From the NCBI RefSeq assembly GCF_054482595.1, contig NZ_CM137008.1: 64,000 nt of DNA; one strand, 5' to 3'. Every line of letters begins with the position of its first letter. Within the stretch, counting starts at the first letter, position 1. This document shows positions 26,179 through 26,612 of this stretch, in pieces. The notes under the pieces were generated by a model. It was not told the origin of the DNA. It ran no database searches and saw only the letters and a program-made list of their open reading frames with translations. Position numbers and translations under genes: made by a program.

Positions 26179-26230
26179 TATGTTCAGCGAGCGGTAAATG
26201 TCGTTTTAGCGGTGCTGAATCGAATATTTT

Positions 26231-26287
26231 CAGGCAAATGCCAGTAAAAACTGCTTCATAGCGCGGATTTTTACTGGCGTTTGCCTG
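26231..26287. promoter_or_regulatory. Long imperfect inverted repeat (20-bp arms, 17-nt spacer) in the yqcA-gudP intergenic region
   Basis: caggcaaatgccagtaaaaa ... tttttactggcgtttgcctg; 19 of 20 positions complementary. Confidence 0.45.
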
Positions 26288-26612
26288 GAGTCAAGCGATC
26301 CATTTCATACTCTTCTTTATTTCTTCGTTTTAACCCTTCCTTTCTTGTTCTTGTTTTCATTTCCGTGAAGTGGATTCCACCGTCCAGGGCTAATGCCAAA
26401 ATCGGGCCTCATTGAACGCATTAATGTTGTGTTGTTGCACGGTGAGCCGCTATGGCGCGCTTTTTATACTGCTATTGCCAGATATAAACACGCGCCGTAT
26501 TCGGCGAACGACCTATAAAAACGGCAAAAAACACCCTACGTCACCTCTGATTTCCTGGCTATGTCGCAGTCCAGAGTGAGCGTGGCTAACGCGAATTTTC
26601 AGGAGTGCAACA

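Follow-up and report, generated by a model that had tools for sequence, protein, structure and literature searches.

The yqcA and gudP genes follow each other on the + strand of the Escherichia coli chromosome, separated by a gap of 434 bp according to both the list of open reading frames and the annotation. In the window (the whole stretch of DNA that was analyzed, 64 kb in length), the gene order on this strand is csrB, yqcC, truC, yqcA and gudP. The csrB small RNA gene, located 1.6 kb upstream of the element described below and on the same strand, is known and bears no relation to the finding; its 3' end served for cross-checking the K-12 coordinates. In K-12 MG1655, where these genes occupy the − strand, the equivalent of the gap is 2922101-2922534 (window position = 2948713 minus the K-12 coordinate).

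The gap is part of the core genome, being present at ≥95% identity in 5422 of 5426 complete E. coli genomes. No annotated features were found inside it in these genomes, and a search of the open-access literature revealed no paper naming yqcA together with gudP, or gudT together with an sRNA. Membership in the REP/BIME or ERIC elements or in another multi-copy repeat family was rejected, as the gap occurs in one place per genome (median 1, maximum 2; 5425 E. coli genomes). In a single strain (E. coli NZ_CP095856.1) the match comprises the first 157 nt of the gap only and breaks inside the pyrimidine-rich tract, which suggests an insertion or rearrangement at that point.

Stem-loop and pyrimidine-rich tract downstream of yqcA

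The original prediction had pointed to an imperfect inverted repeat just after yqcA, with 20-bp arms, a 17-nt spacer and one mismatch, followed by a CT-rich tract. Both were recovered: the coordinates of the repeat proved exact when the sequence was read and when a repeat finder was applied, and the 60-nt window at 26299-26358 is composed of C+T to 85%. The repeat and the tract are real and non-random. It had also been claimed that no T-run follows the repeat, such that it would not be a classical intrinsic terminator; this was borne out for the complete hairpin, with the correction that a run of five T residues does exist, but is buried inside the 3' arm. The coordinates of these and the other features of the locus are collected in Table 1.

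Table 1. Features of the yqcA-gudP locus, in positions of the 64-kb window
Feature	Position	Strand	Basis and remarks
csrB small RNA gene	24198-24557	+	Rfam RF00018, 380 bits
truC	24929-25711	+	ORF list, annotation
yqcA, flavodoxin CDS	25729-26178	+	ORF list, RefSeq annotation, K-12 b2790; its transcript enters the element
Conserved block A, CTGAATCG (ACTGAATCGAGTTAGC in other genera)	26215-26222	+	Comparison among species
Complete RNA stem-loop in the yqcA 3' UTR	26229-26289	+	26 pairs, −39.1 kcal/mol, no U-tract after it
5' arm, CAGGCAAATGCCAGTAAAAA	26231-26250	+	Sequence reading, repeat finder
Conserved dyad box, AGGCAAATGCC (GGCATTTGCC on the − strand), candidate distal operator	26232-26242	.	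Core of the 5' arm
Apical 4-bp stem CUGC/GCGG with 8-nt loop	26251-26266	+	−2.8 kcal/mol; sole hairpin directly before the T5 run
3' arm, TTTTTACTGGCGTTTGCCTG	26268-26287	+	Sequence reading, repeat finder; opens with the T5 run 26268-26272
Inverted second box, GGCGTTTGCC	26276-26285	.	In 5 of 6 Escherichia sequences and no other genus; lengthens the stem
Pyrimidine-rich, G-poor tract, candidate rut site	26289-26366	+	C20 G7 T40; G 9%
Conserved block B, GTCAAGCGA-N6-TTCAYAC	26290-26312	+	Directly after the hairpin
Start of the widely conserved gudP control region	26354-26397	.	Comprises block C (TTTTCATTTCCGTGAAG..TTCCAC) and the proximal dyad
Proximal dyad, GGGCTAATGCC	26387-26397	.	Comparison among species
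Inferred gudP core promoter: TTGCAC (26435-26440), 24 nt, TATACT (26465-26470)	26435-26470	+	Same layout in garP and cdaR
Peak of the Rho termination region	26595	+	K-12 2922118 mapped; 18 nt before the gudP ATG
gudP CDS	26613-27965	+	ORF list, RefSeq annotation, K-12 mapping; downstream gene, insulated according to the main reading

The stem-loop begins 50 nt past the yqcA stop codon and ranks first among the local inverted repeats of the window, its 60-nt hairpin segment yielding z = −9.0 relative to shuffled sequences. Folding of a 242-nt region gave z = −5.2 for the + strand versus −2.9 for the − strand. The single mismatch (26239 T opposite 26279 G) is C.A if read on the − strand and pairs as a G.U wobble in the RNA of the + strand, and the + strand fold is the more stable in all six Escherichia sequences, with 2-4 G.U pairs versus 0-2 on the − strand.

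The adjoining tract is extreme in composition, with equally pyrimidine-rich 78-nt windows amounting to only 0.007% (7 in 100,000, both strands of the 64 kb). The sequence right after the hairpin is GAGUCAAGCG; in the tract as a whole T exceeds C, and it is not strongly C-rich. It is weakly structured and untranslated, and the fold places it in a single-stranded loop. A long-range RNA helix that the fold predicts to close the tract (26297-26308 with 26365-26376) was dismissed as unsupported: its inner pairs are invariant and hence uninformative, and covariation of its outer pairs did not go beyond that of shuffles.

For comparison among species, 80 yqcA loci were examined, one genome per species, and as a rule yqcA is succeeded there by gudP in the same orientation. 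Approximately half of the gaps are of a long type, at 420-515 bp, and these carry a homologue of the module at 26215-26353. The others (in Enterobacter, the C. freundii group and Buttiauxella) are short, and conservation starts there only at ∼26354. Of 34 species, 33 have more C than G over the 78 nt that follow the hairpin position (means of 23.3 C and 12.3 G), and the length of the tract is conserved; its central 40 nt are only ∼34% identical between lineages, and strong CT-richness is restricted to Escherichia and a few neighbors.

Several further peculiarities of the compared loci were recorded. In Citrobacter braakii, Citrobacter sp. FP75 and C. gillenii, 2-3 kb are inserted between yqcA and gudP, and in E. 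albertii no gudP was found within 4 kb downstream of yqcA. In the short gaps of Enterobacter and the C. freundii group, REP-like palindromes (e.g., GCCGGGTAAGGCGTAGCCGCCACCCGGC), situated between yqcA and the conserved control region of gudP, replace the Escherichia-type module.

Within the stem, the nucleotides at 26239:26279 were UG in 14 and UA in 10 of 27 sequences; those at 26243:26275 were CG (8), AU (7), UA (3) or UG (2), and those at 26232:26286 were AU (8), GC (8) or GU (6). The covariation of the stem pairs is thus modest: the score of 0.158, versus 0.129 in shuffles, was attained by 4 of 500 shuffles, and related sequences can beat shuffles without any structure. These counts were obtained from per-sequence folds and explicit pair counting, as RNAalifold returned no useful consensus for the alignments of the hairpin and of the gudP leader, in which loops of differing sequence misalign.

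Rho-dependent termination between yqcA and gudP

A Rho termination region with its peak at K-12 position 2922118 (− strand) is listed in supplementary file 2 of Adams et al. 2021 (PMC7815308), with a Rho score of 3.98 (p = 9e-8). In the DirectRNA-seq data of the same study, untreated cells gave coverage values of 114 for the 800 nt upstream and 23 for the 800 nt downstream; with bicyclomycin the values were 112 and 90 (PMC7815308). The ratio of downstream to upstream coverage therefore rises from 20% in untreated cells to 80% with the inhibitor, at a resolution of several hundred nt, and about four-fifths of the + strand transcription ends between yqcA and gudP. Since the drop in coverage is largely abolished by bicyclomycin, most of the termination between the two genes is Rho-dependent, and the hairpin is consequently not an efficient intrinsic terminator.

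In E. coli, the ends of Rho-dependent transcripts lie precisely just downstream of stable stem-loops without a U-tract; such stem-loops shield the RNA from 3' exonucleases, and rut sites are located immediately downstream of them (Dar and Sorek 2018, PMC6061677). The arrangement after yqcA fits this pattern in each point, the most stable local hairpin of the 64 kb directly adjoining their most pyrimidine-rich stretch. The repeat and the tract are accordingly read, with a probability of roughly 0.55, as a Rho-dependent terminator of the (yqcC-)truC-yqcA unit that insulates gudP. The CT-rich tract would then most likely represent a Rho utilization (rut) site, a link that the original prediction had not made. 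Among the options that it had offered, an RNA structural element is the best supported, on the grounds of the + strand fold, the + strand wobbles, the covarying pairs and the published bicyclomycin data.

In the proposed course of events, the + strand RNA would form the very stable stem-loop soon after the yqcA stop codon. As no U-tract follows, RNA polymerase would continue into the unstructured, G-poor tract, on which Rho could load, freeing the transcript close to the gudP start or ahead of it. The RNA would subsequently be trimmed by 3'-to-5' exonucleases back to the base of the stem-loop, which would protect the yqcA mRNA, and the inducible gudPXD genes would thereby be insulated from the constitutive transcription upstream. 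It is inferred that the tract at 26289-26366 is the rut site used and that the mature 3' end of yqcA lies at the base of the hairpin.

The published Rho peak is located ∼230-300 nt downstream of the tract, at a resolution of hundreds of nt. Part of the gudP leader (26480-26560), 35-115 nt upstream of the peak, also contains more C than G (GC skew ∼−0.3) and could serve as an alternative or additional rut site. The bicyclomycin effect could instead concern transcripts begun at the gudP promoter. No curated Term-seq 3' ends were found in the gap (K-12 29221xx-29225xx) under three growth conditions (PMC7815308), a negative result that is not decisive given the low expression of yqcA, and the TERMITe supplements contain no entry for the gap.

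If correct, the Rho-dependent reading would explain the silence of the glucarate operon gudPXD, located 434 bp downstream of a constitutive operon on the same strand, and would assign sequence features to a Rho region that has so far been an "orphan" coordinate in a supplementary table. One property of the region speaks against a terminator alone: the conserved blocks around the hairpin keep fixed distances, which a terminator does not explain.

Spaced blocks upstream of gudP and candidate operator sites

The conserved blocks A, B and C, the proximal dyad and the gudP core promoter form an array of strikingly rigid dimensions. From block A (26215) to block B (26290) the distance is 75-76 nt in 17 of 20 species, from block B to the GTGAA motif (26365) it is again 75-76 nt in 33 of 34 species, and from GTGAA to TGCACGGTGAG (26436) it is 71 nt in 32 of 33 species. 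The distance between the −10 element and the ATG, unlike this rigid upstream spacing, varies from 128 to 173 nt. Fixed distances, kept across the Enterobacteriaceae while the sequence between the blocks has diverged (∼34% identity), suggest a helically phased protein-DNA architecture. Block B is probably a DNA site. Transcription start data for the gudP promoter were not found, and its position was deduced from the sequence.

An ancient tandem duplication as the origin of the two 75-nt units (A to B and B to C) was rejected, since their identity of 22 of 75 positions compares with a mean of 19 and a maximum of 28 in shifted alignments. Inspection of blocks B and C by eye gave no convincing match to sites for KdgR, FNR, IHF, sigma-54 or CRP, and no gudP site occurs among the 77 strongest CRP footprints. 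A 9-bp helix was observed in the inferred gudP 5' leader (26541-26549 with 26571-26579, TCACCTCTG / CCAGAGTGA). In other genera it reads CATTCTGA / TCAGAATG, with five pairs altered on both sides (41 species), and the observed values were reached by none of 500 shuffles; it may represent either an RNA hairpin or a palindromic DNA site.

The hairpin itself takes part in the rigid array. A dyad of the form RGGC-N4-GCC is located 203-205 bp upstream of TGCACGGTGAG in 25 of the 26 species that have this distal copy, and its position coincides with the core of the 5' arm (GGCAAATGCC, 26233-26242). A proximal copy of the dyad is present in 58 of 59 species, at −49 relative to TGCAC. The Raoultella version of the distal box reads GGGCATTTGCAC. 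As a terminator alone does not account for fixed spacing to the promoter, the 5' arm probably carries a DNA site as well, plausibly one for CdaR.

CdaR, which has been described as an activator, reportedly controls gud, gar and its own gene. In K-12 the gudP, garP and cdaR promoters (the latter two in the garP-garD gap, positions 6909-7282 of the locus analyzed, and the degP-cdaR gap, positions 1310-1463) have a common layout, TTGCAC-N24-TAT(A/G)CT. The garP and cdaR promoters also have the 14-mer GCATTTGCACAATG in common at the TTGCAC position, and promoter alignments anchored on TTGCAC surpass shifted controls (z = 2.8 to 3.7). The − strand core of the distal box (GGCATTTGCC) agrees with the cdaR box GGCATTTGCA, which was deduced rather than footprinted, at 9 of 10 positions, and an 8-mer of it is common to the garP box; this 8-mer occurs six times in the 64-kb window, so that a single match is weak. 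The GCATTTGCAC(AATG) box, together with the TTGCAC-N24-TATRCT layout and centered near −41, is a candidate CdaR box. Its sharing among the gudP, garP and cdaR promoters, in combination with the rigid array, provides a testable candidate for the CdaR site.

The hairpin may accordingly be regarded, tentatively, as a distal operator in which the arm cores GGCAAATGCC and GGCGTTTGCC are bound as DNA by CdaR or by another regulator of gudP. These sites would act jointly with the TTGCAC element at ∼−41 and the proximal dyad, perhaps by looping of the DNA. The conserved distance between box and promoter, within an upstream spacing that is rigid throughout, and the resemblance of the 5' arm core to the GCATTTGCAC box of garP and cdaR are in accord with this possibility. 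This role is plausible, though several points count against it: the site would lie ∼240 bp upstream of the inferred start, and gudP and the proximal region occur without any of the module in roughly every second species (Enterobacter, the C. freundii group and Buttiauxella). Moreover, the second, inverted copy and the 20-bp arms are confined to Escherichia, and the G.U asymmetry and the covarying pairs just outside the box are left unexplained. Literature searches turned up no CdaR binding data, and to our knowledge looping has not been reported for CdaR. The earlier suggestion of an operator for the gud regulator gained partial and unexpected support, limited to the 10-11 bp of the 5' arm core, which are conserved at a fixed distance from the gudP promoter and resemble the box of garP and cdaR. 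Conservation of the repeat among the Enterobacteriaceae extends to the 5' arm core; the 20-bp arms in their full length are found in Escherichia only.

The roles of terminator and operator are compatible. It is conceivable, if unlikely, that the element is bifunctional, its boxes acting as a distal operator in the DNA and its hairpin as the terminator of the upstream operon in the RNA. Two inverted boxes of the GGCAAATGCC type would then belong to an array, spaced by ∼7 helical turns, that would extend to 220 bp upstream of the gudP promoter. In that event the occupancy of the regulator could affect read-through from upstream and vice versa, a roadblock or looping to the −90 dyad being examples of how this might happen. 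The rigid array and a possible distal operator, both derived from comparison among species, are the only parts of the results that would go beyond the routine.

Variation of the hairpin and comparison with known systems

The ∼25-bp stem is confined to Escherichia (z = −6 to −10). Elsewhere the stems are shorter, with 17-23 pairs in some Citrobacter and, in more distant genera, either 5-11 bp or none that stand out. Relative to Citrobacter, the 3' arm has changed (TTTTCATAGG to TTTGCCTGGA) in five of the six Escherichia sequences, and these changes gave rise to both the long stem and the inverted second box; either selection or the templated "correction" of a quasi-palindrome could lie behind them.

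A GC-rich hairpin (CCCTCCCCCTACCGGGAGGG) was observed right after the yqcA stop codon in seven loci (at ∼4450-4500 of the locus) from Salmonella, several Citrobacter, Superficieibacter and Phytobacter; in most cases it has no T-run behind it. The homologue of the repeat hairpin follows it by ∼100 nt in these genera. The first hairpin has been lost in Escherichia, and its loss may be the reason for the longer stem of the hairpin that remained.

In the relatives, the homologous hairpin often has a GC-rich upper stem followed by T5-T6, as in CCCTTTGCAATAAAGGG-TTTTTAC of Superficieibacter, and the stem is flanked by A- and T-tracts in the manner of bidirectional terminators. A strict terminator rule was satisfied by 7 of 28 sequences on the + strand and 4 of 28 on the − strand, and a relaxed rule by 22 and 13, respectively. 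These observations raise the prospect of an intrinsic, possibly bidirectional, yqcA terminator that would still be active in E. coli by virtue of the apical stem and the T5 run. Such activity is improbable, as none of the six Escherichia sequences satisfies the strict rule and the 4 bp that precede the T5 run make too weak a stem to terminate efficiently. In addition, coverage downstream remains at ∼80% of that upstream (112 to 90) when Rho is inhibited, such that an intrinsic stop would be minor at most, and a search for terminator sites called none on the + strand of the gap.

The long stem could also lack a selected function, having arisen by template-switch "correction" of a shorter ancestral hairpin, with the CT-richness being due to drift in a spacer of constrained length. 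Relative to Citrobacter, the palindrome has been perfected by one change in the 5' arm and four in the 3' arm (three of these four create pairs), and a pattern of palindrome-perfecting changes is typical of templated mutation; the restriction of the long stem to Escherichia and the lack of conservation of the tract sequence between genera also fit. This explanation is very unlikely in view of the survival of the stem, through substitutions and with two alleles of the loop, in six Escherichia species or lineages, the near-universal presence of the gap in complete E. coli genomes, the excess of C over G common to nearly all of the species compared, and the fact that Rho-dependent termination does take place in the gap.

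Least probable of all is an unannotated + strand sRNA, derived by processing of the yqcA 3' UTR or transcribed from a promoter of its own, with block A (ACUGAAUCGAGUUAGC) as seed and the hairpin as terminator. A 16-nt block is kept in at least seven genera directly upstream of the hairpin with its variable stem, a layout typical of 3' UTR-derived sRNAs, and a conserved TA is located 7-8 nt upstream of block A. Against this, the E. coli, Salmonella, Citrobacter, Superficieibacter, Raoultella and Phytobacter loci gave no match in Rfam, the curated Term-seq ends are missing from the gap as noted above, and prediction tables based on RIL-seq list only the "yqcA CDS" (probability ∼0.0002), with no 3' UTR or intergenic entry. 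A promoter scan of the region detected none on the + strand and one on the − strand (TTGACT-16-AAAAAT), which was rejected as being at chance level (0.9 expected), its −10 element being unconserved. Furthermore, block A is half degenerate in Escherichia, the U-run is paired with an A-run, and the fixed distance of block A from the promoter elements points to DNA. The small unannotated transcript proposed originally therefore found no support.

A small protein on the − strand, starting from a conserved ATG in GGAAATGAAAA, was considered because it would explain the constant spacer length; it was rejected, being 29 aa in E. coli and 2-43 aa elsewhere, with early stops.

The element can be compared with four classes of known systems. 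Like the 3' UTR-derived, Hfq-dependent sRNAs CpxQ, SroC and DapZ, it combines a short conserved block with a hairpin that follows at once and closes an mRNA, but it differs from them in that no transcript or Hfq interaction record was detected, there is no free U-tail and no Rfam family is assigned. It resembles bidirectional intrinsic terminators in that its apical stem is flanked by an A5 run on the 5' side and a T5 run on the 3' side, and the homologous hairpins of Citrobacter, Superficieibacter and Raoultella satisfy the terminator rule; in contrast to such terminators, the apical stem of E. coli has only 4 bp, the T-run is buried and the stop is largely Rho-dependent.

The distal and proximal dyad boxes, ∼155 bp apart and with strictly conserved spacing to the promoter, are reminiscent of the araO2-araI, galOE-galOI and deoO sites. 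They differ from these in that the candidate regulator, CdaR, is described as an activator and in that many species have no distal copy.

The closest likeness is to the class of Rho-dependent terminators mentioned above (PMC6061677), with which the element shares a stem-loop without U-tail soon after the stop codon, a G-poor pyrimidine tract downstream and a bicyclomycin-sensitive drop in coverage. It departs from that class in that a 3' end at the hairpin base is not seen among the curated Term-seq ends, and in its unusually long stem (25-26 bp), its T-rich tract and the overlap of the hairpin with a conserved DNA box. Specialists in termination will find nothing surprising in these results: the element is most likely an ordinary member of this known class, whose Rho coordinate had already been published, as an orphan and without description.
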